Below, one piece after another: positions 3,110 to 58,389 of a stretch of 64,000 bases of DNA (the stretch's first letter is position 1; each line of letters begins with the position of its first letter). Under the pieces are notes generated by a model. That model was not told the DNA's origin and made no database searches. It worked only from the letters and a program-made list of their open reading frames with translations. The stretch comes from Candidatus Moraniibacteriota bacterium (GTDB taxonomy: Bacteria; Patescibacteriota; Minisyncoccia; Moranbacterales; GCA-2747515). Made by a program: the position numbers and the translations under genes. The stretch is taken from contig CP175956.1 in the NCBI GenBank assembly GCA_046116545.1, positions 321,734 to 385,733 on the forward strand, written 5' to 3'.

Positions 3110-3201
3110 CGTCTTTGCGAGGAGGTACGACGAAATATTCTCTATAAGTTTTATATAATCTGTACGAGATTGCCACGTCGACTACCGTCTCCTCGCAATG
3201 A
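3110..3201. repeat. MITE-like element, family GTCWTTGCGAGGAGGTACGACGAA...(TIR), copy 1 of 4
   Basis: Left end GTCTTTGCGAGGAGGTACGACGAA, right end reverse-complement GTCATTGCGAGGAGACGGTAGTCGACGTGGCAATCTC; homologous copies at 6469-6586, 29231-29333 and 58297-58389 (inverted orientation). Sits between sufU and sufT and overlaps the spurious N-terminal extension of ORF 3170..3517. Confidence 0.7.
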
Positions 3202-3214
3202 CACTAAAAATATC

Positions 3215-3517
3215 ATGAAAAAAGATAAGAACTTAATAAAAAAACTAGACGCAGTCATTGACCCTGAATTAAACATCCCCATAACAGAAATGGGTCTAAT
3301 TTATGGTGCCGAACAAATTGATACTGAAAATATTAAAATCACTATGACACTCACAACAATAGGATGTCCCCTATACGAAGTGATTCATGATGATATTGTA
3401 CGTGTATTAAAAGAAGATAAAAATATCAAAGAAGTGAAAATAAAGCTAACCTTCGACCCACCATGGTCCCCAGAAATGATGACCGACAGTGCAAAAATGG
3501 AAGTTGGACTTTTGTAA
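3215..3517 (+). CDS. sufT: SufT-like Fe-S assembly protein (DUF59/MIP18 family)
   Basis: MKKDKNLIKKLDAVIDPELNIPITEMGLIY...TMTLTTIGCPLYEVI...KIKLTFDPPWSPEMM matches the DUF59 signature; ATG at 3215 chosen because the upstream extension lies inside the MITE-like copy. Confidence 0.7.
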   Translation: MKKDKNLIKKLDAVIDPELNIPITEMGLIYGAEQIDTENIKITMTLTTIGCPLYEVIHDDIVRVLKEDKNIKEVKIKLTFDPPWSPEMMTDSAKMEVGLL

Positions 3518-3526
3518 AACTTCGTA

Positions 3527-3566
3527 GCAACCAGGTCGCTAAGCCTAACGACTTGGTTGCTTTTTA
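3527..3566 (+). terminator. rho-independent terminator of the suf operon (GCAACCAGGTCG...CGACTTGGTTGC + TTTTT)
   Basis: 12-bp GC-containing stem, 10-nt loop, followed by T5 on the plus strand, 10 nt after the sufT stop. Confidence 0.75.
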
Positions 3567-3662
3567 GATTTTTGTAACCAAAAAAATATATCTTTTTTAT
3601 TACAGACTTATTTTACCAAAACAATTTACTGCCTATAAAAAACTACTATATTTTAAAGACAT

Positions 3663-3686
3663 GTCATACCTGCGTAGGCAGGTATC
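3663..3686. repeat. 24-nt palindromic repeat, family GTCATTCCYGCGAAGGCRGGAATC (variant GTCATACCTGCGTAGGCAGGTATC), + orientation
   Basis: Hairpin ATACCTGC-GTAG-GCAGGTAT; sits 7 nt downstream of the GIY-YIG gene stop; inverted relative to the copy at 3997-4020. Confidence 0.7.
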
Positions 3687-3692
3687 TTATAC

Positions 3693-3977
3693 TCACAGAG
3701 TTTCATATAAATCCTTCCAATAAGGATTCTCTTTTTCTATCAAGTTCACCTTCCATTCCCTTTTCCATTTCTTCAACTGTTTTTCACGCAATAAGGCAGA
3801 ATTAACATCCGTAGTTTGTGCAAAATATACCAATCTGTGCACGAAATATTTTTTTGTAAATCCATCTACAACATTATTTTTATGTTCCCAAACTCTTTTT
3901 TGCAAATTAGAAGTAACTCCAATATACAATATGCCATTTTTCTTACTTGCTAAAATATATACACAATACTGTTTCAT
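3693..3977 (-). CDS. GIY-YIG nuclease family protein (small stand-alone GIY-YIG domain, COG2827-like)
   Basis: MKQYCVYILASKKNGILYIGVTSNLQKRVWEHK... carries the GIY-YIG hallmarks (Y-x-Y...YIG...R...E). ORF track extends to 4022 with a TTG start across the palindromic repeat; the ATG at 3977 is preferred. Confidence 0.75.
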   Translation of the reverse strand: MKQYCVYILASKKNGILYIGVTSNLQKRVWEHKNNVVDGFTKKYFVHRLVYFAQTTDVNSALLREKQLKKWKREWKVNLIEKENPYWKDLYETL

Positions 3978-3996
3978 ATTTATTATCTTACAGAAA

Positions 3997-4020
3997 GATT
4001 CCTGCCTTCGCAGGAATGAC
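3997..4020. repeat. 24-nt palindromic repeat (GATTCCTGCCTTCGCAGGAATGAC), - orientation
   Basis: Reverse complement of GTCATTCCTGCGAAGGCAGGAATC; hairpin ATTCCTGC-CTTC-GCAGGAAT. Confidence 0.7.
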
Positions 4021-4086
4021 AAATCTTAATATTTATCCCTACACAACAATAACCACTTCTAGTAATGAAGCATACTTTGCCCGATT

Positions 4087-4110
4087 GTCATGCCTGCGAA
4101 GGCAGGTATC
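4087..4110. repeat. 24-nt palindromic repeat (GTCATGCCTGCGAAGGCAGGTATC), + orientation
   Basis: Same family; about 65 bp upstream of the previous copy. Confidence 0.7.
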
Positions 4111-4124
4111 TTATATTTGTAAAA

Positions 4125-6363: not shown

Positions 6364-6468
6364 ATGTTTTATAACTAAATACTTACATTACTATAAGTTT
6401 ACGAAAGAATAGGCCCATTGTCAAAGCATAAATAATAATTTTTTATCTAAAAGCTTACTTAAAGATAA

Positions 6469-6586
6469 CGTCTTTGCGAGGAGGTACGACGAAGCAATCT
6501 CAAACGTGTATACTAAATATAGACTTACACCGATTGCTTCGCTAATCACATAAAATATCACCACTGCTCACAAAGACGCTAGCAGT
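6469..6586. repeat. MITE-like element, copy 2 of 4 (in the ispG/manC divergent intergenic region)
   Basis: GTCTTTGCGAGGAGGTACGACGAAGCAATCTC...GATTGCTTCG...CTCACAAAGAC; nested inverted repeats read from sequence. Confidence 0.7.
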
Positions 6587-6670
6587 TTCCTGTAAAGTTA
6601 CTTTTCATGAAAATGACAACTATAGTAAAAAAATGATATAATATACCAGTAAAAATATATATTCAAATAA

Positions 6671-13131: not shown

Positions 13132-16100
13132 TTATGCTGAATAACTAAATACTTCATTAAACTTACCTTGTTCCTTTGCTATTTGAGCTAATCTTTTATA
13201 AAAAGATTTGACTGACTCGTCACCTTGCACTGTTAAATAGTTATCAACATCACTATCATAATTTAACACATTCATTGCATTTTGTTCAAAGGTAAAAAAG
13301 TTTTCTGAAAATGTTCCCTGTAAATTGCCCGTGCTATATATTGGCATATTTAAAATTTCAGAAAAATTCTGTCCATTGCCGAGATTATCCTTAAACATAT
13401 CAGCCATTTGCTCTGCAAATAATTTACTTTCTGTTGGTGTTAATGAATTAAAATCAAATTCAACACTTGCCTCAGCGCTTGATTCAGGTTGCATGTTTGC
13501 AACATCACCTTCACTTTGTTCTACTGCTAACATTCTATCTAGATACTGTCCTACGGTTTCTCCAGACTTTACAATTCCGCCACCATTCTCTTGTCTTATT
13601 GTCTCGCTCTCTTCAACAAATTGGAGAAATTTCTCATCTTCATTCATGAATTGCCCTGCGTTCTTGCTTATAAGAGATTCATAATCAACTCCTGGATACA
13701 TATTTTCCATCAAAGATCTTTTTTCCATATCAATTGATGCTGCTATCATTTCAGCATTTGCTTGCGTTCCTGCATTTCCTGGTTCTGTAATATTTATTTC
13801 ATCTCCACTTACTGCAGTATTTTCACCATTTAATCCAACTATATCTTCACTTCCGCCAGGTTTAACATCTCCCAGTTCTGGTGTTATACTCTCTGTCGCT
13901 AGTATTCCATCAAAATTTTGCCCTGTTTCAATCGCATTCTGTATTGTTTCAGTACTTCCCATTACACTTGTCAAATTCAAATTATTTCCTGGGTAAATTT
14001 TATGTATATCTCCGCTTTCAAATCCAATTCCTTTCAAATTTTCTGAACTCATTGCTGCAAATTTATCTTTCAATTCATCTATGGCCATGGTTTGTTGATC
14101 TTGAGTCATTCCCGCAAGTTGACTATTTGTTTCTAACTGATTTTTTATTATTCCCCAAAGAGTGTCTCCAGATTTTACACCTACAGATACCTCCATCAAT
14201 TCCACATCACTGCCAATCTCTTCAGCAATAGTTGACTCAACTACTGTGCTTTCAGGTAAAGATTCCTCTACCACTACATCACTTTCATAAACACTTGTAT
14301 CAATACTTGTGTCAGATTCTAACACAACCTCTTTCGGAGGTATATTTGCTGTGATATTTTCATCCACTACACCACCTGCAAACATTTTCCCAATATAACC
14401 AGTTGATAACATTGCTGCAGTAGCTCCTAAGCCATATAAAACACGTCGACTTCTTCCAGCAATTTTACCATGAAATTCTTTTTCTAATATTTTGAAGGAA
14501 TCTTCGTCATATCCTTTCAAGCTAGCTAATTGTTGTTCTAAATCCATTTCCTTAAATGCATCTAATGATTTTGTAATATCATTACCCTCTTTATGTTGTG
14601 CTCTAGCCTCAAAACCAGCTGTTACACCAGTACCTAATACGCCAGCTCCCAAGGCTCTTTTTGCAAATGCCATACCCCCAAAAACTGCAGCACCTGTGCC
14701 TGCACCAGTTGCTAGACCTGCCACGAGCAAAGCACCCGATAAAGCTATTTTATATTTTGTATCCCAACCTTTGTATGACTCAATCACCTTTAAGGCCATT
14801 TTTCCAGCACGTGGATATTTTTCCACCTTCACTGCTACTCTATCAGAATATAGATTAATTTTTTCATTTAAGTCAAAAATTTTCAATTCAATCATTGCAT
14901 CTTTTTTCTGCTCTTCTGAAAGCCCTTCTAAACTATCCAATTTTGCATTTCTAAAATTATTTAATGCTTTTTGATAATCATCCCTCATGGAAACTACGTC
15001 ACGATCTTTGTCTGTATTGATATGTCCAAAAGCAGCTTTAATTTTATTTACCATTCCTTCGCTTTTGTAATGGGTTCTTGTGTATAATCTACGAGCATCA
15101 TCAAGAAGCTCTTGTAATTCTTCTAAATTAGATTCGCTCTCTATTTTTTTTGCACCTTCTTTAAATCCATCGTATTCTATTTGCTTCATTTCATTACCCT
15201 CACCCTCAATGATATCTTTCTCTTCATTTCTTACAACTTCAAGTCCGCGTTCATTGACTTCAGAATCAATTTCAACTTCATTTTCTTCCTGTATTTCCTC
15301 AACTACTATACCCGCCTTTTCCAAAATTTCTTTAGCTTTTTTCCCTTGTTGTACAAGTACTTCTACTCTTTTTATATCATTTTCTAACGCATCTCTTTTT
15401 TTGATCAAAACAGCATTCTTATCTGCAGCTAAATCTTCTGCTCCAAATGCTTGTTTACTCTCATAATTTTGTCCACTTGCAATACGTTCATCTATATTTG
15501 CAATCTCATCACGCATTTCTCCAAGCTCTTTCTCTTTGTTTGCAACATCAATGCTGGCATTTTTATGTACAAACTCTGAAATCAACTCCCTTTTCTTCAA
15601 CAGCTCTTTTTGTGCATTTAATTCATCTTTATTTTTTGTTACTGTTTCTTGCCTCTTTAATAACTTATCAACATCTTCTTGTGTTGTAGCTCCTTTATCT
15701 CCCATATCTTTAGTTGATGCTTTCAATGTGCTTTCCATATCAGATACTCGTTTTTTGATATCACTTAATTCATCATTGATTTCTGCTAGATTATTATCAA
15801 TATTTTTTGTATCTTTTTGTTTTAATATATCAGCTATTTCCTCTACTGAAGCAGAATTAACTATATCTGCTGCACTCTGTGGCTTGTACTCTTGAGATTC
15901 TTTTTGTTCAGTTTGATCTTTTGCATTATTTTGTGAAGTTTCAGATTTCATATTTTTTTGTTCTTTATTTTTTTTACCACCATGTTTATCTACTGCTATG
16001 TTTATAGTACTATAAACAGCACCATTAGACAAAATGTCATTAACATACTCAGTTATATCATCAAATTCAATCTCTTCTCTTACAATTCTATTTGAAATTG

Positions 16101-17040
16101 AAACTATTGCACGATCAAAATGTTTTGCCTTTTTCTCCAACTCACTTGCTTCAGTAAATTGGTTTAAATATTTATTTTTTACATCTTCAGATAAAATGAT
16201 TCTAACCTCATTTTTAATTTTGTTCAGGCTAATATGATTATCTATATCTTTGTTTTCTGGACTATCTTGCAACACACCATCTCGTAATTTTATACTTGTC
16301 ATTGCATGTAACTCATTTGCAATTTTTTCTAATTCTACACTTTGTTTATTTGGACTTTTAATTTTAAATGCATTTTGTTTATTTTCTTTTAATTCTGTCA
16401 ATTTTTCATCCAATCTTCTGTTTACAATATCACTATTATTTGTTGCTTTAATATTTTCAAAATGTTTTTTTACATCTTTTTCTAATTGTGCTATTTCATT
16501 TTTTAAGATAACTACCTCTGTTTTTACATCCAGTCTAATATCTTTCTTTCCTTGACTTGCATCACTATGCACTGCTTTATTCACCATTCCGGATAAACCT
16601 TGCGCTAAATCTTTGTTCAAAGCTTTTTGTGCTGTTAACTGCCTCACACTACTATTATTTTTTACATTTTCTTTTAGAGTCTTTATAACTTTATTCAATT
16701 CACTATTTCTAAATCCACCCTCCTCCCTCATCTCATCTCTTATACTATCCCAAAAAATATTTTTATCTTCATTCTTTTTTAGTGTTTCTTGGTACAAATT
16801 AATAGTTTTAATTAAGTGTTGTGAAATTAATTCTTGCTGTTGCGTTGTCAAATTTTCTGCATTGATAATATCAATATTCTCAACTGCAACAACACTATCT
16901 CCATCTTTTATTCGTTTTTCTTCAGCTTCTTCAGCTTTTTGAAAATCACCATCATTAAACTTCAAAGAGTTGCCCGTATCTTGCATAGGATTACTTCCCT
17001 TCAATCCATTTTTCAACATTTCTTCTTGCGATATTCCCAT
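13132..17040 (-). CDS. giant (1302 aa) coiled-coil-rich protein with central Gly-rich TM segments and a LysM-like segment
   Basis: Long uninterrupted ORF; extensive K/E-rich heptad-like stretches; hydrophobic glycine-zipper region ALSGALLVAGLATGAGTGAAVFGGMAFAKRALGAGVLGTGVTAG; LysM-like GDTLWGII. Confidence 0.6.
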   Translation of the reverse strand: MGISQEEMLKNGLKGSNPMQDTGNSLKFNDGDFQKAEEAEEKRIKDGDSVVAVENIDIINAENLTTQQQELISQHLIKTINLYQETLKKNEDKNIFWDSIRDEMREEGGFRNSELNKVIKTLKENVKNNSSVRQLTAQKALNKDLAQGLSGMVNKAVHSDASQGKKDIRLDVKTEVVILKNEIAQLEKDVKKHFENIKATNNSDIVNRRLDEKLTELKENKQNAFKIKSPNKQSVELEKIANELHAMTSIKLRDGVLQDSPENKDIDNHISLNKIKNEVRIILSEDVKNKYLNQFTEASELEKKAKHFDRAIVSISNRIVREEIEFDDITEYVNDILSNGAVYSTINIAVDKHGGKKNKEQKNMKSETSQNNAKDQTEQKESQEYKPQSAADIVNSASVEEIADILKQKDTKNIDNNLAEINDELSDIKKRVSDMESTLKASTKDMGDKGATTQEDVDKLLKRQETVTKNKDELNAQKELLKKRELISEFVHKNASIDVANKEKELGEMRDEIANIDERIASGQNYESKQAFGAEDLAADKNAVLIKKRDALENDIKRVEVLVQQGKKAKEILEKAGIVVEEIQEENEVEIDSEVNERGLEVVRNEEKDIIEGEGNEMKQIEYDGFKEGAKKIESESNLEELQELLDDARRLYTRTHYKSEGMVNKIKAAFGHINTDKDRDVVSMRDDYQKALNNFRNAKLDSLEGLSEEQKKDAMIELKIFDLNEKINLYSDRVAVKVEKYPRAGKMALKVIESYKGWDTKYKIALSGALLVAGLATGAGTGAAVFGGMAFAKRALGAGVLGTGVTAGFEARAQHKEGNDITKSLDAFKEMDLEQQLASLKGYDEDSFKILEKEFHGKIAGRSRRVLYGLGATAAMLSTGYIGKMFAGGVVDENITANIPPKEVVLESDTSIDTSVYESDVVVEESLPESTVVESTIAEEIGSDVELMEVSVGVKSGDTLWGIIKNQLETNSQLAGMTQDQQTMAIDELKDKFAAMSSENLKGIGFESGDIHKIYPGNNLNLTSVMGSTETIQNAIETGQNFDGILATESITPELGDVKPGGSEDIVGLNGENTAVSGDEINITEPGNAGTQANAEMIAASIDMEKRSLMENMYPGVDYESLISKNAGQFMNEDEKFLQFVEESETIRQENGGGIVKSGETVGQYLDRMLAVEQSEGDVANMQPESSAEASVEFDFNSLTPTESKLFAEQMADMFKDNLGNGQNFSEILNMPIYSTGNLQGTFSENFFTFEQNAMNVLNYDSDVDNYLTVQGDESVKSFYKRLAQIAKEQGKFNEVFSYSA

Positions 17041-17070
17041 TTTATTTTTATAAATTTAATATTTCATTTT

Positions 17071-17142
17071 TATGGTATAATTATAGCATATAATAATACT
17101 TACATAGAAACAAAATGGACAAAAATAATAAAATTATACATT
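17071..17142. repeat. duplicated 72-bp segment (promoter plus first 9 codons of the GT39-like gene); remnant copy
   Basis: About 85% identical to 19158-19229; contains TATAAT-like box and a truncated ORF ATGGACAAAAATAATAAAATTATACATTAA (MDKNNKIIH*) paralogous to MNKKNKIIHF of ORF 19203. Confidence 0.6.
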
Positions 17143-17159: not shown

Positions 17160-19136
17160 TTATAAAGAAGCAATAAAATCTTCTTGTTCTTGAATCGTAC
17201 TATCTAATTCTCCCAGACGTCGAAATGTTCCTTTACCAAAGGTGCTGTCAATTAATTTTCCAATTGGAATTATATTACCTGTCATCATACTTTTTACAAA
17301 AACATCAAAAACATCTTCCCTATCTTTAAATGAAGATTTCTTTTTTTTATATATTTTATCGATAATTGTATTCAAAACATGTCTTTCTGTCTCATAAGAA
17401 AGTTTTTGTGTAATTATATCCGGATGAACTCCCATCAATCTCCTTTTTATACTCTGTAATATATTTTCATCTTGAATGGTTGCATATACAGTATCATCAT
17501 CAACCACAGGAACATTATTACTACCTACCACGTCACAATACTTTTTTTTAATCTTCTCAGTTTGTTTTAATTCTTTCTCGAATAAACTATTATGAGAATT
17601 TTGTGAAACAAATCGCTTTGTTAGCTCTTCTGTTAATGCCTCATTTAAATTTACAAAAAACCTTGACTGTCCATCTCTTGAAACTACTTCCAAACCAGTT
17701 CGATAGCTACTTATAATTGGATCAGTTTCTTTTGTGAGCTGTAAAGCTTGATAAGCTTTGAAATGGATTATTTCATGAAATACTACCTGAGCAAATTCAA
17801 TATTAGATTTTTGCTCTTGTAAGGCTACTGCTTGAAAATGCGCACTAAACACTCCTGAACAATCATTTCTATGTTCTGGCCATTTTTCAGCAGGAATGAC
17901 ATGTATATTTTGTGATGGAATATCAAACTCATCCAACCCTTGTTCAGGTCTAATTTTATTAGTCACCTCATTTACAAGAGAAATGATTTGTAATTCCTTC
18001 TCTGTTTTTTCTCTTTCCTTATCTTGCAAATCATCAAAAACTTGATTATTATTAAATACTTCCTTCATGTCCCGAAAAATCTTTTTTCTCTCTAAAGGCG
18101 ATTTAAACCCTACCATGCGATCAATTGAAGATTCTTTTTTATCATCAAGGGTATTATTTTGAAACTCTTGATATAATTTACCAGAAACAACCTTATAACT
18201 ATCATCATCAATCAAGTTTTCAAATGAAAAAATATTTAATATTTCAGAGCTACCTTTTATTTCTAGAATTAAAAAATCTTCCGCTGGATTTTTCATTGCT
18301 ACATATTTTTTTATTTTAAACCCATATTTCAAAGGGCTGTTTCCTACCAGGATATTTGATGTATTGTTCTTTGCGTTTATACAATATGCATCATTCAAAT
18401 TTATATCATATTTTTTCTCAAATTCACGTTCACGTTCCATCTGACTTTGTTCATCACGCTGATTTTCAATCAAATCTCCTTCCGTTTCTTCAGTATTTAT
18501 TGTATCTTTAACAACTTTTTTTTCTTCCTTTACGTCTTTTTCATGACCTTTTTCATTATTCTTAGAAATCTCAATTTCTTCTAGTTCCTTTTCTCTCTCA
18601 TATCCAACACCAACCCAAAGGTTTTCAAATTCGTATTTTGTTATTTGTTTCTCTTCCCCATCCTTTTCTATTACTATATAGTCATCTTCTAGGTATTCTT
18701 CTGATACATATTTTTGTAAGATGAATCCATCAACTGGAAATTCATCTTCATATTTTATATAATCAGCATCAACTCCATATTTTTTTTCAAATTCACGTCG
18801 TCGATTCATTTGATATGGTGTTTCTTCTTTTTCAGACTCAGATTTACTTTTTTCTTCAAGTTTTATATCCTCTTCAATTGATTTAATACCAATAGATTCT
18901 TTAACTTTCTCAATTTTTGCATCTATTTTTTCCTTTTCTGTTTCTTTTTTTTCAATCTTTTCCATAACCTGTATCTTTTTTTCTTCAGCTCTTTTTTTAT
19001 CCATTTTTGCATATAATTCATTCTCACGCACTAAAGAAGCCTCCGATTGACTGATTAATTTGCCTTCTTCAGATTTATTGCGCACCTCTTGTGCTCCTGC
19101 AGCAACCTCTTTTCTAATCTTATCCCAATCTTTCAT
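17160..19136 (-). CDS. coiled-coil protein (658 aa) with a C-terminal-half HExxH motif (possible zincin-like domain)
   Basis: K/E-rich N-terminal half; FAQVVFHEIIHFKAY contains HExxH; otherwise uncharacterised. Confidence 0.5.
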   Translation of the reverse strand: MKDWDKIRKEVAAGAQEVRNKSEEGKLISQSEASLVRENELYAKMDKKRAEEKKIQVMEKIEKKETEKEKIDAKIEKVKESIGIKSIEEDIKLEEKSKSESEKEETPYQMNRRREFEKKYGVDADYIKYEDEFPVDGFILQKYVSEEYLEDDYIVIEKDGEEKQITKYEFENLWVGVGYEREKELEEIEISKNNEKGHEKDVKEEKKVVKDTINTEETEGDLIENQRDEQSQMEREREFEKKYDINLNDAYCINAKNNTSNILVGNSPLKYGFKIKKYVAMKNPAEDFLILEIKGSSEILNIFSFENLIDDDSYKVVSGKLYQEFQNNTLDDKKESSIDRMVGFKSPLERKKIFRDMKEVFNNNQVFDDLQDKEREKTEKELQIISLVNEVTNKIRPEQGLDEFDIPSQNIHVIPAEKWPEHRNDCSGVFSAHFQAVALQEQKSNIEFAQVVFHEIIHFKAYQALQLTKETDPIISSYRTGLEVVSRDGQSRFFVNLNEALTEELTKRFVSQNSHNSLFEKELKQTEKIKKKYCDVVGSNNVPVVDDDTVYATIQDENILQSIKRRLMGVHPDIITQKLSYETERHVLNTIIDKIYKKKKSSFKDREDVFDVFVKSMMTGNIIPIGKLIDSTFGKGTFRRLGELDSTIQEQEDFIASL

Positions 19137-19162
19137 GTAAAATTCAAAAATATAAATTTATG

Positions 19163-19168
19163 ATATAA
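19163..19168 (+). promoter_or_regulatory. candidate -10 box (TATAAT) about 35 nt upstream of the 19203 start
   Basis: Sequence GATATAATTATAACATATAATAATACTTAC in an AT-rich divergent intergenic region; conserved in the duplicated copy at 17071-17142. Confidence 0.3.
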
Positions 19169-19202
19169 TTATAACATATAATAATACTTACTTTAAAATA
19201 AA

Positions 19203-20765
19203 ATGAACAAAAAAAATAAAATCATACATTTCACAATACTTGCAATCATAATAATATTAGCTATAACTGTACGAGTATGGAATATTGATACTGTTCCTAG
19301 TGGCATATACCCTGATGAAGCAAATAACGGCACAAATGCCTACGATGCTCAATTAACTGGTGATTATCAATGGTTTTACCCTGATAATAATGGTCGTGAA
19401 GGACTTTATCTTAATTTGATGGCTATTACATTCAAATTTTTTGATGTTAGCATGTTAACCATCAAAATTCCTTCCATTATCATGGGAGCTCTTACCGTTG
19501 TTGGTGTATATTTACTTTCTCGTGAATTATTTATTTCAAAACCACGATTAGCACTTATTGCCAGTTATCTCACAGCTGTTAGCTTCTGGGCCATAAATTT
19601 TTCTCGCATTGCCTTTCGCGCAATAATGATGTTACCAATTTTAACTTTTTGTTTTTATTTCATATTTCGTGGTATTCGCACAAATAAGTGGTGGAACTTT
19701 GCACTTGCTGGATTTATTTTTGGACTTGGATTTCATACTTATATTGCCTTTCGCATTGCACCCGCATTATTATTTGTCATATTCATCTTACTATTACTAC
19801 AATATGGGATTGTATTGTTCAAAAAATACTGGAAAGGCGCTCTTATATTTATATTATTTGCAGTCCTTAGTGCTGCACCAATATTTTATACATTCCACAC
19901 ACATCCAGAATACTTAAATTCTCGAACGGGTGATGTTTCTGTATTTGCAAATAGCGAAGATGGACTTGTATCTACATTAACAACAACTGTTTCAGCATCA
20001 CTGTTGAAATTTAATTTTTATGGTGATCAAAATTGGAGACACGGATTTCCACCAACGCCAACGCTTGAAAGTTTTGTTGGCATCATGTTTGTAGGAGGTC
20101 TATTACTTTCAATTATTATATTTCTAACTTATTTATATCGTAGATTTTTCAAAAAAATTCATAATAGAAAATTAGTAACACATGGATTATTGATTGCCTG
20201 GTTCTTTGCATTTCTAGCACCCGAGTTTCTCACAACTGAAGGACTTCCTCATTCTTTGAGATCAATAGGGGTTTTACCTGTTGTTTATATATTTGCAGCA
20301 TTCTTTATAAATTTCATCATAGAGCGCTCAAAAAAACATTCACTTATTACTTATAAGATCACACTAACACTTATGGTTATACTGATGTTAACTTCAGGAA
20401 CCTGCAATGTTTTGAAATATCATAAATATTGGGCAACCTCTCCGCTACAAGCACAAGCCTTTAATAAATCACTTACTGATATAGCAAATTATATAAAAAT
20501 CATTCCAGATGATGCTACTAAATATGTTGTTGCTGGCCCTCTAGAAAGACTACCTGTAAAACTACTAAATGAATCTACTTCAAATTTATATTTTCTATAT
20601 GAAGATGAACTACATAAAATAGATAACACAAAAGATTTCTATGTATTTTTACCAAACAAAAATGATACTGTCTTAAATGAAATATTAAATTCTTATTCAA
20701 TTGTTTTAGAAGTTGTCCCCAGCGAATTAGAAACTGAATTTTTAATATTAAGACATATTCAGTAA
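19203..20765 (+). CDS. polytopic membrane glycosyltransferase, GT39/GT83 (PMT/ArnT)-like
   Basis: 520 aa, more than 10 predicted TM helices, N-terminal loop with GIYPDEANNG (DE motif) as in dolichyl/undecaprenyl-phosphate-sugar-dependent transferases. Confidence 0.65.
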   Translation: MNKKNKIIHFTILAIIIILAITVRVWNIDTVPSGIYPDEANNGTNAYDAQLTGDYQWFYPDNNGREGLYLNLMAITFKFFDVSMLTIKIPSIIMGALTVVGVYLLSRELFISKPRLALIASYLTAVSFWAINFSRIAFRAIMMLPILTFCFYFIFRGIRTNKWWNFALAGFIFGLGFHTYIAFRIAPALLFVIFILLLLQYGIVLFKKYWKGALIFILFAVLSAAPIFYTFHTHPEYLNSRTGDVSVFANSEDGLVSTLTTTVSASLLKFNFYGDQNWRHGFPPTPTLESFVGIMFVGGLLLSIIIFLTYLYRRFFKKIHNRKLVTHGLLIAWFFAFLAPEFLTTEGLPHSLRSIGVLPVVYIFAAFFINFIIERSKKHSLITYKITLTLMVILMLTSGTCNVLKYHKYWATSPLQAQAFNKSLTDIANYIKIIPDDATKYVVAGPLERLPVKLLNESTSNLYFLYEDELHKIDNTKDFYVFLPNKNDTVLNEILNSYSIVLEVVPSELETEFLILRHIQ

Positions 20766-23954: not shown

Positions 23955-24067
23955 ACTTTAGTACAATGCGAGGCACGAATATATATTTTACATGAAACAT
24001 ATATGTATATGTTGTTGGAAAATATACATTCAGTAACGAAGTAGTGTGCAAAGTGCGAAAGTCCTAT

Positions 24068-28093: not shown

Positions 28094-29110
28094 TTATTTT
28101 TTTGTTGCTAAAATTGTTTTTTTGTATATGTCTAGATTATCCAAAACCTTACCAGTTCCCCTTACAACACACCTAAGCGGATCATCTGCCACATAACATG
28201 GCACACCTATAGTCTTTGTTATCAACTGATCAAGATTTCTCAATAGTGCACCACCTCCAGACAACACAGTTCCCTTGTCCATTATATCAGCTGACAACTC
28301 TGGTGGAGTTTCTTGTAAAACTTTCTTTACTGCATTTATAACCTCCCGAAGCTCATCCTGCAATGCCTCTGTAACTTCATTTGATGTAATTATAATAGTT
28401 TTTGGCAATCCTCCCATCAAATCTCTACCTCGTATATCCATACTTTCTTCTTTTGTTTGAGCTATAGCACTTCCTATCTTTTTCTTTATATCCTCTGCCA
28501 TTTGCTCACCTATCGCTAAAGAATATTTTCTTTTAATATAATCTGCGATTGCTTGATCAAACTTATTTCCACCAACTCGTGCACTATGAGCGGACACTAC
28601 ACCTCCCAATGATATAACTGCTATTTCACTAGTACCTCCTCCAATATTTATTATCATATTTCCTTGAGCAGAGTGGATTTTAATTCCTGCCCCTATCATA
28701 GCAAGAATAGGTTCTTTTACTACATATGCTTTTTTTGCTCCAGCTTTCTCTGCAGCATCAACAACTGCCCTTCTTTCTGTTGATGTTATGCCTGCTGGAA
28801 TTGATATCATAACTTCTGGTCGTATTAAAAAGACTCTACCTGTTACTTTTCTTATAAAATATTTAAGCATTGCCTCTGTTACCCGGTAATCTGCTATCAC
28901 ACCATCCCTTAAAGGTTTGTAAGCTGTTATTGTATCGGGAGTTCGTCCAAGCATTTCTTTTGCTTCATTTCCTACTGCAAGAACCTTATTTTCAAGCATT
29001 GAAACTGCAACAACAGAAGGCTCATCCACTACCACACCGGTACCCGGCAAAAATACCAGCGTATTTGCTGTTCCTAAATCAATTCCAATTTTCTTAACAA
29101 ACATACTCAT
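28094..29110 (-). CDS. mreB: rod shape-determining actin homologue MreB
   Basis: MSMFVKKIGIDLGTANTLVF... actin-fold phosphate-1 motif, DIGGGTSEIAVISLGG phosphate-2; ORF track N-terminal extension to 29212 is probably spurious. Confidence 0.9.
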   Translation of the reverse strand: MSMFVKKIGIDLGTANTLVFLPGTGVVVDEPSVVAVSMLENKVLAVGNEAKEMLGRTPDTITAYKPLRDGVIADYRVTEAMLKYFIRKVTGRVFLIRPEVMISIPAGITSTERRAVVDAAEKAGAKKAYVVKEPILAMIGAGIKIHSAQGNMIINIGGGTSEIAVISLGGVVSAHSARVGGNKFDQAIADYIKRKYSLAIGEQMAEDIKKKIGSAIAQTKEESMDIRGRDLMGGLPKTIIITSNEVTEALQDELREVINAVKKVLQETPPELSADIMDKGTVLSGGGALLRNLDQLITKTIGVPCYVADDPLRCVVRGTGKVLDNLDIYKKTILATKK

Positions 29111-33011: not shown

Positions 33012-33085
33012 CTTATTTACACTTCTGTCATTCCGGAAGTTACAAGTTCTTTTCGAACGAAGTGAGAAACCAGAACTTCAACTGT
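33012..33085. repeat. about 74-bp hairpin element with TGTCATTCCGGAAG... / ...CTGTCCGGAATC ends
   Basis: Imperfect long inverted repeat (TTCCGGAAGTTACAAGTTCT / AGAACTTCAACTGTCCGGAA); related ends at 61188-61262. Confidence 0.5.
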
Positions 33086-33542
33086 CCGGAATCTTTCAAA
33101 TAAATTTTTAAAAACTCCTTTATGACTAGATAAAAAGAAAATCGCCACAAATTTACTGTTGTAATTTAGTGGCGATAATTTAAATCAATTTCAATGAGAT
33201 TAATGTCCCTAAAAATCTCTTTGAAATGAGATGCGAAGATTTTCACATCTAGATGTAAGATATCAAAAAACATTGTTTTGATATTATTAGTTTTTATATT
33301 CTATTGTGTAAAGAACAAAAAATCGGTCTGAGCACTTAAAATTGCTCACCCGATTACTATGTAATTATAGCATGCCTAAACACAAAAGTCAACCTTCCCA
33401 CTTTAAGCTTAAACTCAAGTTCTAATTATAAAAAAGAATAAGCTTTAGCATTCCGTAAAATAGATTTCTTTTGTGAGGTGTACCCAGCTAAGGAATCCTT
33501 TGTACGGAATCTAATCATTACTATTATTGTGTACTATTAACA

Positions 33543-44821: not shown

Positions 44822-45325
44822 CTACTGTATTACTGGTTGTTGCAATATCTCGGCAATATTGTATGTAGATGTAACAGGCACATGTACAAGTCGCATATTT
44901 GCACTTTCAAATACTTGATCCACAAGCTCATCACGTTCTTTTCTTTTTTGGTTAAGGTGTGATTTTCCATCTAACTCAATTGCAATAATAGGTTTCAATG
45001 TATCTTTTTCACATAATAAAAAATCAACATGTTTTGATTGAACATAATTTTTTAATGTTTGTTTGTGACCATATTCAAGATACTTTGGAATTGTAAAAAT
45101 ATCTAAAATTCGTACTTTTGAAAATACATGATATTGATCTTGTACAGCATTACTGAGAATATTAAAAAATTCTTTCTCTGTTTTGTTCATGAAAGAATTT
45201 ACTGTATTGTACTTTAATGTTACTCGTTTCTTTTTTTCTTTTTTTGTAATAACCTCTTTTATTACATTTAATATAATAATGGTAAAAACAAACAAAAAAA
45301 CTATTATGTATGATTCTGTATTCAT
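44822..45325 (-). CDS. DUF2726-like protein (restriction-endonuclease-like fold), N-terminal TM
   Basis: C-terminal region NKTEKEFFNILSNAVQDQYHVFSKVRILDIF...HVDFLLCEKDTLKPIIAIELDGKSH...RKERDELVDQVFESANMRLVHV matches the DUF2726 pattern; ATG at 45325 preferred because the longer ORF runs through GC-rich hairpins. Confidence 0.55.
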   Translation of the reverse strand: MNTESYIIVFLFVFTIIILNVIKEVITKKEKKKRVTLKYNTVNSFMNKTEKEFFNILSNAVQDQYHVFSKVRILDIFTIPKYLEYGHKQTLKNYVQSKHVDFLLCEKDTLKPIIAIELDGKSHLNQKRKERDELVDQVFESANMRLVHVPVTSTYNIAEILQQPVIQ

Positions 45326-45354
45326 AATCCTAAATTTTGCAAACAAAAAAGGTC

Positions 45355-45450
45355 TTCCGATGGCGGAAGCTCTTTCGAGCGACCCTACTCCCTTTCGAGA
45401 ATAGACCATGAATACAAGTACCAGTCAGAAGACCGTCTTTGTATTCATGG
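45355..45450. promoter_or_regulatory. cluster of GC-rich hairpins (CTTCCG-ATGG-CGGAAG; CCATGAATACAA-21nt-TTGTATTCATGG; direct CTTTCGAG x2)
   Basis: Perfect 12-bp stem at 45408-45452 and 6-bp stem at 45351-45366; compositionally distinct from surrounding AT-rich DNA. Confidence 0.35.
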
Positions 45451-45671
45451 ATTTCAGACCATATCCTATTTTATAAAAATAGGGGTTAGGTCATGCTTAA
45501 ATTGTAATTTAATTTTATATTACTATAACACTAAAATCAATATGTGCTTTTTCAGGATATTCTTTGTAATTACGATGGAAAATCCTTTTTCTTCCGCAAT
45601 TGTATTTCAAGTATGTTATTATCTGTGGTCAAGATAGAGACGGCGCGAAGTGAAGTTCTGCCTTTATCACA

Positions 45672-47992: not shown

Positions 47993-48028
47993 ATTTTTAG
48001 TATTTTAGTATATTAATTTTACCTACTT

Positions 48029-48052
48029 GTCATTCCCGCGAAGGCGGGAATC
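48029..48052. repeat. 24-nt palindromic repeat GTCATTCCCGCGAAGGCGGGAATC (+ orientation)
   Basis: Hairpin ATTCCCGC-GAAG-GCGGGAAT; in the korB/korA intergenic spacer. Confidence 0.7.
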
Positions 48053-48084
48053 TATCGTACGGTATCAATATAATCTTACGGGAA

Positions 48085-48108
48085 GATTCCTGCCTTCGCA
48101 GGAATGAC
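48085..48108. repeat. 24-nt palindromic repeat GATTCCTGCCTTCGCAGGAATGAC (- orientation); forms an inverted pair with 48029-48052
   Basis: Together the pair (48029-48108) resembles the termini of the GIY-YIG cassette at 3663-4020 without the ORF. Confidence 0.7.
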
Positions 48109-50437: not shown

Positions 50438-50791
50438 ATGCAACAACAACTGCATCAAGTTACGTATTGCAATAGATTCCGAAATAGACGACGATCTACA
50501 AAAAAGAAATATTGGTTCAAGTGCCTACATGCCTTACCTGAAAATCCACGTTTTGAATATCTACGTAGTAACCAAATTACTTTCAACATTTACTTGGGAC
50601 ACTACAATGCGCCAGTAGCTGTGGAAATAAAAAAGATTCGACATCTACGAAGGTCCCGATTTGGAAAACGAGTTGAATTAAGTTTAATTCATGTACGAGG
50701 TGATAAATCTTACAAAATAACAGCAATTTACAATATAAATAATGGCTCAATGGTAATTCACCCTGTGCCAAAATTTCTATTTGCAAACTAA
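50438..50791 (+). CDS. hypothetical basic protein
   Basis: 117 aa, strongly basic N-terminus (NRFRNRRRSTKKK); strong SD AAAGGAGTGA 7 nt upstream of ATG. Confidence 0.4.
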   Translation: MQQQLHQVTYCNRFRNRRRSTKKKYWFKCLHALPENPRFEYLRSNQITFNIYLGHYNAPVAVEIKKIRHLRRSRFGKRVELSLIHVRGDKSYKITAIYNINNGSMVIHPVPKFLFAN

Positions 50792-50838
50792 TACTTAAAT
50801 GCCATGATATTTATACAAATATCATGGCATTGTTTTTT

Positions 50839-51654
50839 TTATTTCAAAATAAATCCAACATTAAAACATCCTGTACTAATCAAAAATACTATCATTAATA
50901 TTGTGATTATAATTGTAATAAAAAGATATATCCCTGCTGATCTTTTAGAAAGTTGTGTTTTAGGTGGTATTTTCTTCATTTTCTTAGGCAACAAGTACAA
51001 AAAGAAAGGCAAAACCAAACATTGCAAAACACCAAATGTACACCACACTGAAGGATAAGTTACACAAATATTAACTCCATTAGTATAATGACTTCCTATA
51101 GAATAGGCTGCAGCAATCAAAAAAGAAATTGTCATTGAAAACAACAGATACATCCAAGACAATGATTTTGAAATATATTGTCCTACATTTTTTTGTTCAA
51201 ATAAAATACAAATATTCCAATACATAAATAACACAAACCATGCAAGTGACCACAAAAATATCGAGTGATGTTCTAAATGGAAGTCTAACACTGTAAACTC
51301 TACTGGTTTTAAAAATAAATAGATCGCCACAATAGCTACGACAATACTTAATTCCCTGACATATAACTTACGATTATAAAATTTTTCCAAAGAAAAAAGA
51401 TAAAACACCATTCCAGTTAATGAAATTAAAAGACCTATTTTATAAACTATTACACTCCCAGTAACTAAAGAAAGAAATTCGAAAATCTGATGAGTACCAA
51501 TCATTGAACCTGCTATCATCAAATACTTCAAAAAAGGTATTAGCTCTTCTCTATTTATTTTTTTGTAATAAATGGAAGCGCTTAAATATCCGATTAACGC
51601 ACCAGCCCAAACAACAAGACCTGTCATTAATTGCACTTTTTCTACATAATTCAT
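50839..51654 (-). CDS. hypothetical polytopic membrane protein (about 7 TM)
   Basis: ATG at 51654 (MNYVEKVQLMTGLVVWAG...); ORF-track start at 51702 is TTG. Confidence 0.45.
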   Translation of the reverse strand: MNYVEKVQLMTGLVVWAGALIGYLSASIYYKKINREELIPFLKYLMIAGSMIGTHQIFEFLSLVTGSVIVYKIGLLISLTGMVFYLFSLEKFYNRKLYVRELSIVVAIVAIYLFLKPVEFTVLDFHLEHHSIFLWSLAWFVLFMYWNICILFEQKNVGQYISKSLSWMYLLFSMTISFLIAAAYSIGSHYTNGVNICVTYPSVWCTFGVLQCLVLPFFLYLLPKKMKKIPPKTQLSKRSAGIYLFITIIITILMIVFLISTGCFNVGFILK

Positions 51655-56181: not shown

Positions 56182-56292
56182 GATTTACACCCCCTTCTGA
56201 ATGTTTTTGTTAAATAACAATTTATTTTTCACTATAAAAATAGTATGTAATCGTATCATTTCGTACAACGCTAGTCAATGACAAATATTATA

Positions 56293-56330
56293 AAACCCTT
56301 GCAATATATTATATATTGCAAGGGTTATTT
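56293..56330. terminator. bidirectional terminator: perfect palindrome AACCCTTGCAATATAT/TATATATTGCAAGGGTT flanked by A/T runs
   Basis: 16-bp perfect inverted repeat read from sequence, directly after the stop of 56333..57007. Confidence 0.7.
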
Positions 56331-56332
56331 TA

Positions 56333-57007
56333 CTACTGTAGTACCCTAGTATTTTCCAGTTTTTGTATTTTAGCCAAAGTCTCTGATGCAAATGACAATG
56401 ACGGTATCTTTCTATCAAATATAAATAAATAATCCAAAGACTCTTTACCTCCAGCATCTAGAGTATAACTACCTGCATCACATCTGTAAAAAATTGTAAG
56501 CAGTTGAAAAAAATCTCTTGTATTCATTTCAATACGAGTTGCTGAATAATTAATCATTTGTGCTATTGTGTCTATATCTTTATTACCACGGATATATTCA
56601 CCCAGAGAGTCTTCTTCTATAAGTGCTACTGCAATATCTTTGTACTTATTTGAGATGACCAAAGTATCAAAAATATTTTTCAATTTCTCAACAGTATAAA
56701 CATGTTGTTGATTTTTATCACCATATGCAATTGCTTCTGGCTTTCCGATATCATGCAATACCAATATCAAACGAAATATTCCTAGATCAAAATTAGCTGG
56801 TAATTCATTACTACGGAAATATTTCTCAAACTGTCGCATCATCATGATAGTATGCTCACCAATGGTGTAGCCTTCCCAAACACCCGCATCAGCATTGTAA
56901 ATATCACCCAAATCACCTGATAAAAACTGAATGAGTTTTTCTGGTGTAAATTGTTTGTCATATAATATTTGATCTAATTCTTTTTTTGTAACCTGTAAAT
57001 TTTTCAT
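56333..57007 (-). CDS. HD-domain phosphohydrolase
   Basis: 224 aa; H...HD motif (GEHTIMMM ... LVLHDIGKPEA). Confidence 0.65.
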   Translation of the reverse strand: MKNLQVTKKELDQILYDKQFTPEKLIQFLSGDLGDIYNADAGVWEGYTIGEHTIMMMRQFEKYFRSNELPANFDLGIFRLILVLHDIGKPEAIAYGDKNQQHVYTVEKLKNIFDTLVISNKYKDIAVALIEEDSLGEYIRGNKDIDTIAQMINYSATRIEMNTRDFFQLLTIFYRCDAGSYTLDAGGKESLDYLFIFDRKIPSLSFASETLAKIQKLENTRVLQ

Positions 57008-57100
57008 AAATCAATCTCCTAAATTAAAACTCTCCTGCAAATATTATTGCAAGAGAGTTGTGTTTACCTTATCACTATCTACAATTACTACAGGCAATTG

Positions 57101-57118
57101 CCTGTGCAATTTTCCACT
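57101..57118. promoter_or_regulatory. perfect palindrome ACAGGCAATTGCCTGT (related to the ACAGGCA...TGCCTGT core of the GGACAGG repeats)
   Basis: 16-bp perfect palindrome in the 296-bp spacer upstream of the HD-domain gene. Confidence 0.35.
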
Positions 57119-57230
57119 CTCTCAATTTATATTCACGATTAAGTCTTAAATCGTACTTCACCATGTAATACAAATCTTTTGCACGTTGAGAAAAATTAAT
57201 GCGTAACATTTTACATTTCATTTTTTGTTC

Positions 57231-57256
57231 TCCTATAGACAGGCACAAGACCTGTC
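57231..57256. repeat. AGACAGGCACAAGACCTGTCCCTACA palindromic repeat, copy 3 of 3, followed by GC hairpin GGCGGG-TCTTGTG-CCCGCC (57269-57287)
   Basis: Compensatory substitutions preserve the 6-bp stem; located just downstream (minus strand) of nadE. Confidence 0.7.
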
Positions 57257-57303
57257 CCTACATAACCATAGTTGTAGTGGCGGGTCTTGTGCCCGCCCAT
57301 TGA

Positions 57304-58275
57304 TTAATCCACAAGACCTTGCTCACGGAGCTCCCAGCGTTCTACACCTGGAATTCCAAGCTCTTTGTGTCTTGTTGCCTTTTCGATTACCCGTGCAAAC
57401 ATTATTAATTGCACCTGATTCTCTGTGTATCCAAGTACACGAGCAAGAGACTCTGCATCAAAATTTTCTCGACAACCATTGATCACTTCTTGATCAAGAT
57501 TTTGTCTTACAATCCAGGCAATATTACCTTCAGTAAAAAGATCACCATAAGATAATCGAATATTAAATCCCATGTTCTGCGCCCAAGATGTAAGTTCATC
57601 TTCATCATTGTGTGCGTCACCATTAGCATTAAGATCAGCTGATGGAGTTTTCCGCGCAATTCGCATAAACACTTCTGCACCGTATACTTCACTAAACCAC
57701 ATGGCAATTTGTCTCACTTCGACTTTCATGAGACCGACAAGAATATTATTGTCTACTGCACCATCACCAAATTTGTCATAGTACCGAAAGATCAAATCTT
57801 CCTCAGCATTACCAGTGCCATATATCCGTCCAGCACCACCGTCAACAATTTTAGATAACAGTCCAGCAATTGGAACTGCAGCACGAGACTTAAAGGATGC
57901 ATAACCACTTTCCCAGCCATTTGCTGTTGAATCAATAGTACCCTCATCAAACCACTCATCACCTTCAGCTAATGCTTGTTCCTTCAGCTGACGAAGAATT
58001 TCATCATACATTGGATTTGCATCTATAACTCTCAACTTAAATCCTACTGCTTTTTCTAAATCTCTTACATCAACTAGGTGTTTTGGATTACTACGAAGAT
58101 CCCTATACATTGCAACAACATTCTCTGGACCAAATGCCCGAGCTAGTATTGTCACAACTACTGCAGAATCAACGCCTCCAGAAAGTGACACGTACACTTT
58201 TTTGCATCCTGCACCAAAGTCTTGTGCTCGTTTTTCCAAATATTTCACTGTTTGTTCAACTGGTTTTATAAACAT
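57304..58275 (-). CDS. nadE: NH3-dependent NAD+ synthetase
   Basis: 323 aa; PP-loop VSLSGGVDSAVV. Confidence 0.85.
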   Translation of the reverse strand: MFIKPVEQTVKYLEKRAQDFGAGCKKVYVSLSGGVDSAVVVTILARAFGPENVVAMYRDLRSNPKHLVDVRDLEKAVGFKLRVIDANPMYDEILRQLKEQALAEGDEWFDEGTIDSTANGWESGYASFKSRAAVPIAGLLSKIVDGGAGRIYGTGNAEEDLIFRYYDKFGDGAVDNNILVGLMKVEVRQIAMWFSEVYGAEVFMRIARKTPSADLNANGDAHNDEDELTSWAQNMGFNIRLSYGDLFTEGNIAWIVRQNLDQEVINGCRENFDAESLARVLGYTENQVQLIMFARVIEKATRHKELGIPGVERWELREQGLVD

Positions 58276-58296
58276 AATATTATCTCCTATTTAATT

Positions 58297-58389
58297 GTCA
58301 TTGCGAGGAACGAAGTGACGTGGCAATCTCAACAATACCTTCTACAATCTTCAGGAATTGCTTCGTCGTCGTACCTCCTTCTCACAAAG
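58297..58389. repeat. MITE-like element, copy 4 of 4 (inverted orientation), in the nadK/nadE spacer
   Basis: GTCATTGCGAGGAACGAAGTGACGTGGCAATCTC ... GAATTGCTTCGTCGTCGTACCTCCTTCTCACAAAGAC (reverse complement of the family left end). Confidence 0.7.

Follow-up and report, generated by a model that had tools for sequence, protein, structure and literature searches.

Repeats and genes of the window

The sequence analyzed here (the window) is a 64-kb stretch comprising about 5% of the 1.29-Mb genome of a Candidatus Moraniibacteriota bacterium, a member of the candidate phyla radiation (CPR), and it carries four short intergenic repeats, each made of two inverted half-sites. These repeats, which the original prediction had described as a family of miniature inverted-repeat transposable elements (MITEs), are likely to be head-to-head pairs of an unusual motif related to the recognition sites of the Ssn nucleases, small GIY-YIG proteins that were first described in 2025. 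In the following, "A-type" refers to the motif of the four repeats and "canonical" to the NTS/SRM hairpin family; the boundaries of the elements were set by their outer GTC...GAC ends. The A-type features of the window are as follows:

3111-3202, plus strand: A-type dimer, copy 1, in the sufU-sufT spacer
6470-6577, plus strand: A-type dimer, copy 2, between the divergent ispG and manC genes; left half perfect, right half decayed
23961-23979, plus strand: probable remnant of an A-type half, AGTACAATGCGAGGCACGAA
29231-29333, plus strand: A-type dimer, copy 3, upstream of mreB; left half perfect, right half decayed
58297-58391, minus strand: A-type dimer, copy 4, between nadK and nadE; inverted relative to copies 1 to 3

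The four copies lie essentially where they had been placed, except that the one assigned to 6469-6586 ends at position 6577 and is thus 9 nt shorter; the predicted size range of 92 to 118 bp holds at its lower end, with the largest element measuring 108 bp. All four are intergenic, as had been stated, and Pfam agrees with the gene neighborhoods (NifU_N and FeS_assembly_P for copy 1, GcpE and ManC for copy 2, a position upstream of MreB for copy 3, and NAD_synthase and NAD_kinase for copy 4). Copy 2 is bracketed by predicted promoters at 6424-6396 (minus strand) and 6613-6642 (plus strand).

Two observations concern the genes next to these elements. Outside the repeat, the 19 bp at positions 6408-6426 of the window, which take in the TTGACA of the top-ranked ispG promoter prediction (6424-6396, minus strand), are missing in an otherwise 100% identical contig of another sample (L009), an indel at the strain level. 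The mechanically called mreB open reading frame (ORF) (28094-29212, minus strand; 372 aa, TTG start) exceeds its homologues (335 to 338 aa, 90 to 91% query coverage) by ~34 codons; the true start is probably near position 29110, with an upstream intergenic region of ~495 bp.

Anatomy of the A-type elements

In each element, two inverted half-sites stand head to head on either side of an AT-rich spacer of 25 to 35 nt; the G+C content of the window is 28 to 37% (background, 32%). The half-site of the window reads [C/T]GTC[A/T]TTG[C/T]GAG, followed by a variable middle and GAAGCAATC (it can also be written as GTCATTGCGAGG..GAAGCAATC or GTCATTGCGAG...GAAGCAATC), and its frame is [C/T]GTC-ATTGC-GA-(variable middle)-GAA-GCAAT-C. 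All eight halves, assembled by eye into the four dimers, begin with [C/T]GTC[A/T]T, and three of the left halves are identical over 24 to 30 nt. The partner halves that start at 6577 and 29333 on the minus strand retain just the two end blocks, which in copy 2 are GTCTTTGTGAG and GAAGCAATC. In copy 1, the left half (3111-3142, GTCTTTGCGAGGAGGTACGACGAA...) lacks the inner block, and the right half, read from 3202 on the minus strand, is GTCATTGCGAGGAGACGGTAGTCGACGTGGCAATC. The terminal inverted repeats, predicted to be ~30 nt long, do share their tips of ~11 to 14 nt and an inner GAAGCAATC/GATTGCTTC block; they are nevertheless imperfect, differ in the length between these blocks, and each constitute an oriented tagged hairpin site. 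Copies 1 and 4 both combine a 'GGAGGTACGAC' half with an 'ACG..GT.GACGTG' half, and copy 4 is called inverted because these halves stand in the opposite order relative to copy 1; the asymmetry of the halves agrees with the opposite orientation noted previously. The spacers (interiors) of the four copies are mutually unrelated, which bears out the claim that the interiors vary.

The 30-mer GTCWTTGCGAGGAGGTACGACGAAGCAATC has three matches in the window at no more than 3 mismatches, compared with none in 100 shuffled sequences, and a relaxed two-block scan (GTCWTTGYGAG, then GAAGCAATC within 50 nt) recovered six halves against 0.26 expected. Scans of the 64 kb revealed no fifth A-type copy and only one orphan fragment, the remnant at 23961-23979. 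A decayed relative had been suggested at 23961-24065, and the 13-mer TGCGAGGCACGAA at position 23967 is indeed the short A-type form of other genomes. No partner half could be recognized to the right of this remnant, the fold of the 23961-24065 region is weak (z = -2.4), and the remainder is unrecognizable. The whole units of the four copies fold strongly, at -25 to -35 kcal/mol with z values from -2.4 to -6.0 (for copy 1, -35.5 kcal/mol and z = -6.0).

A canonical SRM family and an ssnA cassette

The window contains a second family of perfect hairpins, GTCATTCCYGCGAAGGCRGGAATC, found at positions 3663 (plus strand), 4020 (minus strand), 4087 (plus strand), 48029 (plus strand), and 48108 (minus strand). 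This family and the ssnA gene that accompanies it (3662-4110 and 48029-48108) were absent from the original prediction. Together with two less regular sites, they comprise the following features:

3662-4021, minus strand: SRM-ssnA-SRM cassette, 460 bp from A-type copy 1
3663-3686, plus strand: SRM of the cassette, GTCATACCTGCGTAGGCAGGTATC
3693-3977, minus strand: ssnA homologue (94 aa, GIY-YIG), ~500 bases from copy 1
3997-4020, minus strand: SRM of the cassette, GTCATTCCTGCGAAGGCAGGAATC
4087-4110, plus strand: solo canonical SRM adjoining the cassette, GTCATGCCTGCGAAGGCAGGTATC
33027-33093, plus strand: long-loop SRM-like site, GTC-ATTCCGGA-47 nt-TCCGGAAT-C; DNA fold, -14.8 kcal/mol
~33452-33510: decayed site similar to the preceding one
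48029-48108, no strand assigned: gene-less head-to-head dimer of canonical SRMs, 80 bp; fold, -50.4 kcal/mol, z = -11.3

Chenal et al. (2025, PMC11893778) described the Neisseria repeat CGTCATTCCCGCGMAVGCGGGAATCYRG (NTS, previously called dRS3) together with related hairpins (Ssn-related motifs [SRMs]), which occur on the flanks of ssnA genes and are scattered in hundreds of copies. According to the same description, SsnA, which belongs to the cd10448 family and consists of a single GIY-YIG domain (94 aa), binds the hairpin only as single-stranded DNA (ssDNA), cuts it a few nucleotides upstream, and is inactive on RNA; the three bases that precede the palindrome are important for cutting, and the C that follows it is important for binding. 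The mode of spread is left open in that account, which likens the NTS-ssnA-NTS arrangement to an insertion sequence. Such repeats had earlier been classed by Di Nocera et al. (2013, PMC3733652) as CGTC-tagged repetitive extragenic palindromes (REPs), whose families CGTC-1 to CGTC-4 include dRS3 and Rickettsia RPE-4 and RPE-6; in that account, head-to-head dimers prevail, and no transposase is associated with them.

The ORF at 3693-3977 encodes a single GIY-YIG domain (residues 3 to 78 of 94; Pfam PF01541, E = 5.5e-15), with no match to a specific NCBIfam model and no PDB relative detectable by sequence. The hairpins and the gene layout agree with the descriptions in PMC11893778 and PMC3733652, and on these sequence grounds the second family is assigned to canonical NTS/SRM and the ORF to ssnA. 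The hairpins at 3663, 4020, 48029, and 48108 correspond to NTS itself as described in PMC11893778, and the family has the stem, loop, and tail of the CGTC-tagged REPs (8- to 9-bp stem, 4- to 5-nt loop, and short CCA-like tail). The published SRM search pattern, HGTCWYN(0-2)YYVSBRHN(0-5)WNVSBRGN(0-2)RNCYNB (PMC11893778), matches the window solely at 48028-48055. Among 80 metagenomic loci that carry the closest ssnA homologues (58 to 73% identity), most show [C/T]GTCAT-hairpin-ATCCA ~40 bp upstream of the gene and an inverted copy downstream; the sequence of the hairpin stems varies at these loci, and the pairing is always kept. The right end of the 48029-48108 dimer is 88% identical to the right end of the cassette over 48 nt, including ~16 nt of the interior, and this gene-less dimer is probably a deletion derivative of an ssnA cassette. 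The frame GTCATT...AATC is common to the canonical and A-type families.

The two less regular SRM-like sites both lie in a 630-bp stretch (32912-33542) that has no ORF of at least 80 aa, no tRNA, and no Rfam match.

Distribution of the A-type motif in other genomes

A search of one genome per species for exact copies of the 25-mer TTGCGAGGAGGTACGACGAAGCAAT gave, among the matches listed, at least 120 stretches, most of them in Bacteroidota. The other matches come from CPR bacteria (Magasanik-, Peri-, Berkel-, and Uhrbacteria), Cyanobacteria (a Rivularia chromosome), and Gammaproteobacteria (a Methylophaga chromosome), as well as from a few metagenome-assembled genomes of further phyla, for which mis-binning is possible. 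The exact 25-mer is present in at least five phyla. Of the 125 copies with room on both sides, 83 (66%) have an inverted partner within 175 nt, with a median unit length of 92 bp. The position preceding GTC is occupied by C in 62% and by T in 30% of the 125 copies, 107 of which read GTCA, and the A-type stem is followed by CT in 95 and by CC in 20 of them.

The partner halves of the 83 dimers, which were not selected by the search except for their last 10 nt, conserve GTCATTGCGA(G) and (C)GAAGCAATC and differ in the middle, which is 4 to 30 nt long. When folded as DNA, most of these halves leave GTC unpaired, form a 5-bp stem (ATTGC/GCAAT) and, beyond two further unpaired bases, a distal stem-loop, and leave the C unpaired as well. 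The basal stem and the 3' C are always present; the distal stem, found in many partner halves, has been formed by unrelated sequences, such as GCG/CGC, GGCT/AGCC, AGCAGAT/ATCTGCT, and AGCTGA/TCAGCT. Since the middle often forms stems of unrelated sequence, each half is predicted to fold by itself, as an oriented hairpin site in its own right, fixed in sequence at the base and free at the top like the canonical SRMs, rather than to be just one arm of a transposon end.

Repeat families were also seen to insert into or beside one another. In several Sphingobacterium loci (L019, L037, L062, L099, L111, and L115), the loops of A-type dimers carry another, nested tagged element, GTCATCCTGAGC...CGAAGGATC..., and tandem arrays of halves are found in L130, L035, and L099. 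Sub-strings of the motif were looked for in the full text of the literature and returned unrelated primers only.

Association with Ssn nuclease genes

All ORFs in the ~870 kb surrounding the at least 120 matches of the 25-mer were clustered without prior assumption. The only genuine protein family that recurs in these flanks is the Ssn-type GIY-YIG nuclease, encoded at five loci and in each case within ~100 bp of an A- or D-type repeat; no transposase family and no family of REP-associated tyrosine transposases (RAYTs) recurs there. Further ssn loci came from a scan of viral contigs with the five Ssn proteins and from the metagenome set. In L216, GTCATTGCGAGGAACGAAGCAATC lies upstream of ssn and its inverted copy lies downstream, so that both motifs point at the gene. 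L197, an AT-rich contig, has the same layout, with CGTCATTGCGAGTGTAGCGAAGCAATCCAG on either side of an ssn gene whose product shares 63% identity with the Ssn of the window. The ssn gene has A-type dimers on both sides in L215 and clusters of A-type motifs on both sides in L036 and L017; L095 also has the A-type motif flanking ssn. In a quick neighbor-joining tree of 119 Ssn homologues, the proteins encoded beside the A-type motif or the similar motif GTCATTTCGA mostly form one clade, with L197 as an exception. The original prediction proposed a search for an autonomous transposase-encoding partner with the same terminal inverted repeats; a gene-carrying type of partner does exist, and it encodes a 94-aa GIY-YIG nuclease rather than a transposase.

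Viral contigs L217 to L223 and L228 encode other Ssn homologues, and the tagged hairpins that flank these have long structured middles and carry an ACCCA tail, e.g., CGTCATCCCGCGCGCAGCGAAGCGGAGACGCGGGACCCA; these hairpins represent further motif classes.

The architecture of the A-type units is very similar to that of the REP doublets that form hairpins (REPINs) or bacterial interspersed mosaic elements (BIMEs), which are mobilized by RAYTs, tyrosine HUH transposases of the IS200/IS605 family acting on ssDNA hairpins. Both consist of inverted doublets of tagged hairpins (66% of the A-type copies), are intergenic, leave no duplications, and are tied to a single-copy enzyme gene flanked by the repeats, and the description of the CGTC-tagged repeats in PMC3733652 leaves open which enzyme mobilizes them. 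However, the RAYT-associated repeats have a GTAG tag, whereas the A-type tag is CGTC or TGTC; no RAYT-like ORF is found near the A-type repeats or recurs in their ~870 kb of flanks, the same description reports no RAYT gene flanked by CGTC units, and the consistent neighbor is a GIY-YIG gene. Mobilization of the A-type units by a RAYT is accordingly considered highly improbable.

Presence in the window and absence from its relatives

The original prediction proposed a comparison with related genomes, and all four copies proved to be missing from the orthologous spacers of relatives whose flanking proteins (IspG, NadE, and MreB) are 83 to 91% identical to those of the window and which, except near mreB, retain the gene order of these regions:

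manC-ispG spacer: 307 bp in the window; 126 to 168 bp in four relatives, without the element
nadK-nadE spacer: 146 bp in the window; 74 bp (L248) and 67 bp (L249) in relatives, without the element
sufU-sufT spacer: A-type dimer in the window; empty in L212 (39 bp), with the A-type element absent from L211 and L214 as well
Region upstream of mreB: A-type dimer in the window; 5 to 96 bp in L251 to L254, without the element and with the local gene order rearranged

No A-type site was found in ~100 kb of DNA from these relatives. Because all four copies are absent at the orthologous spacers, the comparison identifies the A-type dimers as gains specific to the lineage of the window. The strain-level contigs L001 to L010 are identical to the window at the element sites, differing only by the 19-bp indel outside the element, and hence uninformative with respect to recent mobility. 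The proposed recent or ongoing proliferation is thus supported insofar as the gain is lineage specific, but the partner half is strongly decayed in two of the four copies.

The ssnA cassette also differs in location between genomes. In L211, the sufU-sufT spacer holds an SRM-ssnA-SRM cassette (14104-14466) that is 76% identical to the cassette of the window over 363 nt, with the homology ending exactly at the outer TGTCAT/ATGACA. In the window, the cassette sits downstream of sufT and, relative to the operon, in the orientation opposite to that in L211. Given the different site and the sharp ends of the homology, the alignment indicates that the cassette is a discrete unit that has changed its place. 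One additional T within a T-run divides the L211 copy of ssnA between two reading frames, which could reflect either a pseudogene or an assembly error.

The predicted MITE nature of the repeats implies deletion derivatives of an insertion sequence that depend on a DDE-type transposase acting on ~30-nt terminal inverted repeats and producing target-site duplications. The size of 92 to 108 bp, the inverted repeats at the ends, the intergenic location, and the presence/absence differences among related genomes are all consistent with such an origin, and in some genomes (e.g., in Sphingobacterium tenebrionis) whole units with the same interior do recur. However, the proposed check for flanking duplications of 2 to 9 nt was negative both for the four copies of the window and for the 83 complete units elsewhere, where a few 4-nt identities between the flanks are palindromic tetramers that extend the inverted repeat. 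The flanks of the four copies are as follows:

Copy 1: ..ACACCC on the left, ACTAAA on the right
Copy 2: ..GATAAC on the left, GCTAGC on the right
Copy 3: ..AAGTGC on the left, TGGTTG on the right
Copy 4: ..TTAATT on the left, ATCATT on the right

In addition, no transposase family recurs near the at least 120 copies and no transposase with matching ends is encoded in the ~870 kb around them, the interiors of the window copies are unrelated rather than conserved, and the ends represent tagged, oriented hairpin sites in which the distal stems covary. The MITE assignment is therefore unsupported on several counts, and we regard it as very unlikely.

Some spacers of the relatives contain hairpins of their own. 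The perfect palindrome ACTATCATACTACGTAGTATGATAGT is found in the sufU-sufT spacer of L214 (position 3478) and in the nadK-nadE spacer of L248 (position 2935), and the nadK-nadE spacer of L249 holds yet another palindrome. These two intra-operon spacers, which in the window hold A-type dimers, seem to attract or tolerate differing hairpin elements.

Such unrelated palindromes hint that hairpins are tolerated or even useful at these sites, which would fit a structured RNA (a leader, a terminator, or a processing or stabilizing hairpin) kept for gene regulation; the strong folds of the whole units, with z values down to -6, and the location of copies 1 and 4 inside operons, where they would be transcribed, point in the same direction. 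Nevertheless, Rfam searches, at the gathering score and at E values of up to 1, found no family on any of the four copies, copy 2 lies between divergent promoters, and both orientations occur. Furthermore, no T-run follows any of the copies, the elements are missing from the orthologous spacers, the same sequence stands beside unrelated genes in several phyla, and SsnA is described as inactive on RNA (PMC11893778). An RNA function thus appears extremely improbable, in agreement with the initial preference for mobile DNA. The six-frame peptides of the four copies, compared with NCBIfam at E values of up to 10 as a test for Rickettsia RPE-type peptides, gave no match, and ARAGORN found no tRNA or tmRNA in the window. 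Two other candidates, attC/integron sites and terminators, were dropped, the former for the lack of GTTRRRY cores and the latter for the lack of a T-run after any copy.

Relationship to NTS/SRM sites and CGTC-tagged REPs

The A-type motif resembles the NTS and SRM sites described in PMC11893778, which comprise a 20- to 50-nt hairpin-forming palindrome with a C on its 3' side, in that its 5' [C/T]GTC tag leads into AT and a predicted, in part weak, hairpin with a C directly after the stem, and in being dispersed and mostly intergenic. In both cases, the motifs flank small ssn genes on both sides (for the A-type, in genomes other than that of the window), and the A-type tag and post-stem C occupy the positions that the same paper describes as critical for cleavage and binding, respectively. 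The A-type differs in its 5-bp basal stem, conserved GA/GAA, variable middle, and arrangement mostly as head-to-head dimers of ~92 bp, and it is commonest in Bacteroidota and CPR bacteria, groups that the main text of PMC11893778 does not name.

With the CGTC-tagged REPs of PMC3733652, the A-type motif has in common the CGTC or TGTC tag, the A-T stem start, the predominance of head-to-head dimers, the lack of a transposase, and the occurrence in several phyla, including Bacteroidetes. By the text of their published description, the four families of those repeats are probably set apart by a stem of 8 to 9 bp, a loop of 4 to 5 nt, and a CCA tail, compared with the 5-bp stem, long variable middle (10 to 32 nt), and CT or CC tail of the A-type. 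The Correia/NEMIS, RUP, and Nezha elements, all MITEs, are likewise small, with terminal inverted repeats, intergenic spread, and possible effects on neighboring transcripts; unlike them, the A-type units have neither target-site duplications nor a parent insertion sequence with a transposase, and their ends are self-folding oriented sites.

In summary, the repeats form a genuine family that is mobile on an evolutionary scale, and it belongs with the CGTC-tagged REPs and Ssn-related motifs, not with the MITEs. Compared with the published definitions as worded in the main text, the A-type appears as a variant that lies outside them: its base measures 5 bp, GA/GAA is conserved, the top varies, and most units are head-to-head dimers.

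Proposed mechanism and its difficulties

By analogy with NTS and SsnA, the protein that binds each half-site would be an Ssn-family ssDNA endonuclease, small and with GIY-YIG as its only domain. In ssDNA, each half would fold alone, or else the two halves would pair into a hairpin of 90 to 110 nt; the Ssn protein would then cut a few bases 5' of the GTC tag. The A-type dimers could be viewed as gene-less satellites of SRM-ssn-SRM cassettes, and new copies might arise, as a guess, via cutting and rejoining at an ssDNA stage or via repair-templated copying, either of which would leave no duplication. The recognition of the A-type motif by an Ssn enzyme, and the identity of that enzyme in the host genome, are inferred.

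Several observations weigh against the relationship of the A-type repeats to Ssn. None of the eight A-type halves matches the published SRM pattern, which requires pyrimidines (YY) at positions where they have purines. The commonest half of the window is a weak hairpin as DNA (5-bp stem, 16-nt loop, and -1.7 kcal/mol compared with -8.9 kcal/mol for the canonical one), and five of the eight halves read GTCTTT, which breaks the first pair of the stem. The sole ssn gene in the 64 kb is bracketed by canonical hairpins, not by A-type motifs, and no cognate A-type enzyme was seen in the window. Only ~4% of the sampled A-type copies adjoin ssn, and the orientation of the motifs around those genes is not uniform. 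Moreover, the clustering and nesting of different repeat families could inflate the association with ssn, and the tree of Ssn homologues carries no support values. The proposed link between the A-type motif and Ssn is one of genomic association.

Some of the same features would also be expected of inert relics, i.e., of elements that descend from Ssn-linked sites, are no longer recognized by any host enzyme, and are decaying. Heavy decay of the partner half in two of the four copies, the GTCTTT tags, the single orphan fragment, the differing interiors, and the canonical-hairpin type of the local ssnA all fit this view. The three left halves are nonetheless identical over 24 to 30 nt to each other and to copies from other phyla despite the 32% G+C background, which argues for either recent gain or continuing constraint, and the window represents only 5% of the genome. 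We therefore regard decaying relics as unlikely and favor the interpretation of the four repeats as head-to-head pairs of an Ssn-related motif.

Other features of the window

A full-length match to the LOOT RNA (Rfam RF03000) was found at 45365-45492 on the minus strand (71.8 bits compared with a gathering score of 46.4; E = 1.6e-11), just upstream of and overlapping the start of the ORF at 44822-45409. Two long, near-perfect inverted repeats with 4-nt loops, at 600-659 (28 nt, 93% complementarity) and 50778-50851 (35 nt, 74%), are found where genes end and resemble terminators; they have no relation to the repeat families. The gene at 17160-19136 has on either side a copy of a 108-nt direct repeat (78% identity; 17035-17142 and 19123-19230), in the upstream regions of the flanking genes.

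Implications

The pattern that defines the published repeats misses the A-type motif, and this very widespread class would extend the repertoire of Ssn-linked sites. The analysis contributes a two-tier site structure, filled and empty orthologous sites in CPR relatives, and a sharp-edged cassette at two different sites; taken together with the new motif class, they make the mobility hypothesis testable. For annotators, the analysis accounts for a 'junk' repeat that is very common in Bacteroidota and CPR bacteria and often mistranslated as short ORFs, and in practical terms, the A-type motif could offer a new specificity for site-specific ssDNA cutting.

For the host, we infer a possible effect such as the restriction of incoming ssDNA, as in Neisseria, or side effects on mRNA; copies 1 and 4, located within operons, may affect their transcripts. 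A more far-reaching idea, put forward here only tentatively and more doubtful than the Ssn relationship itself, is that the SRM-ssn-SRM cassettes and the gene-less dimers, those of the A-type included, constitute a true family of mobile elements, in which a ~94-aa GIY-YIG ssDNA nuclease would take the role of a transposase, moving the elements through a single-stranded stage without target duplication and across phyla, from Bacteroidota to CPR bacteria, Cyanobacteria, and Proteobacteria. If true, this would account for the presence of identical noncoding sequences of 25 to 30 nt in such distant genomes.

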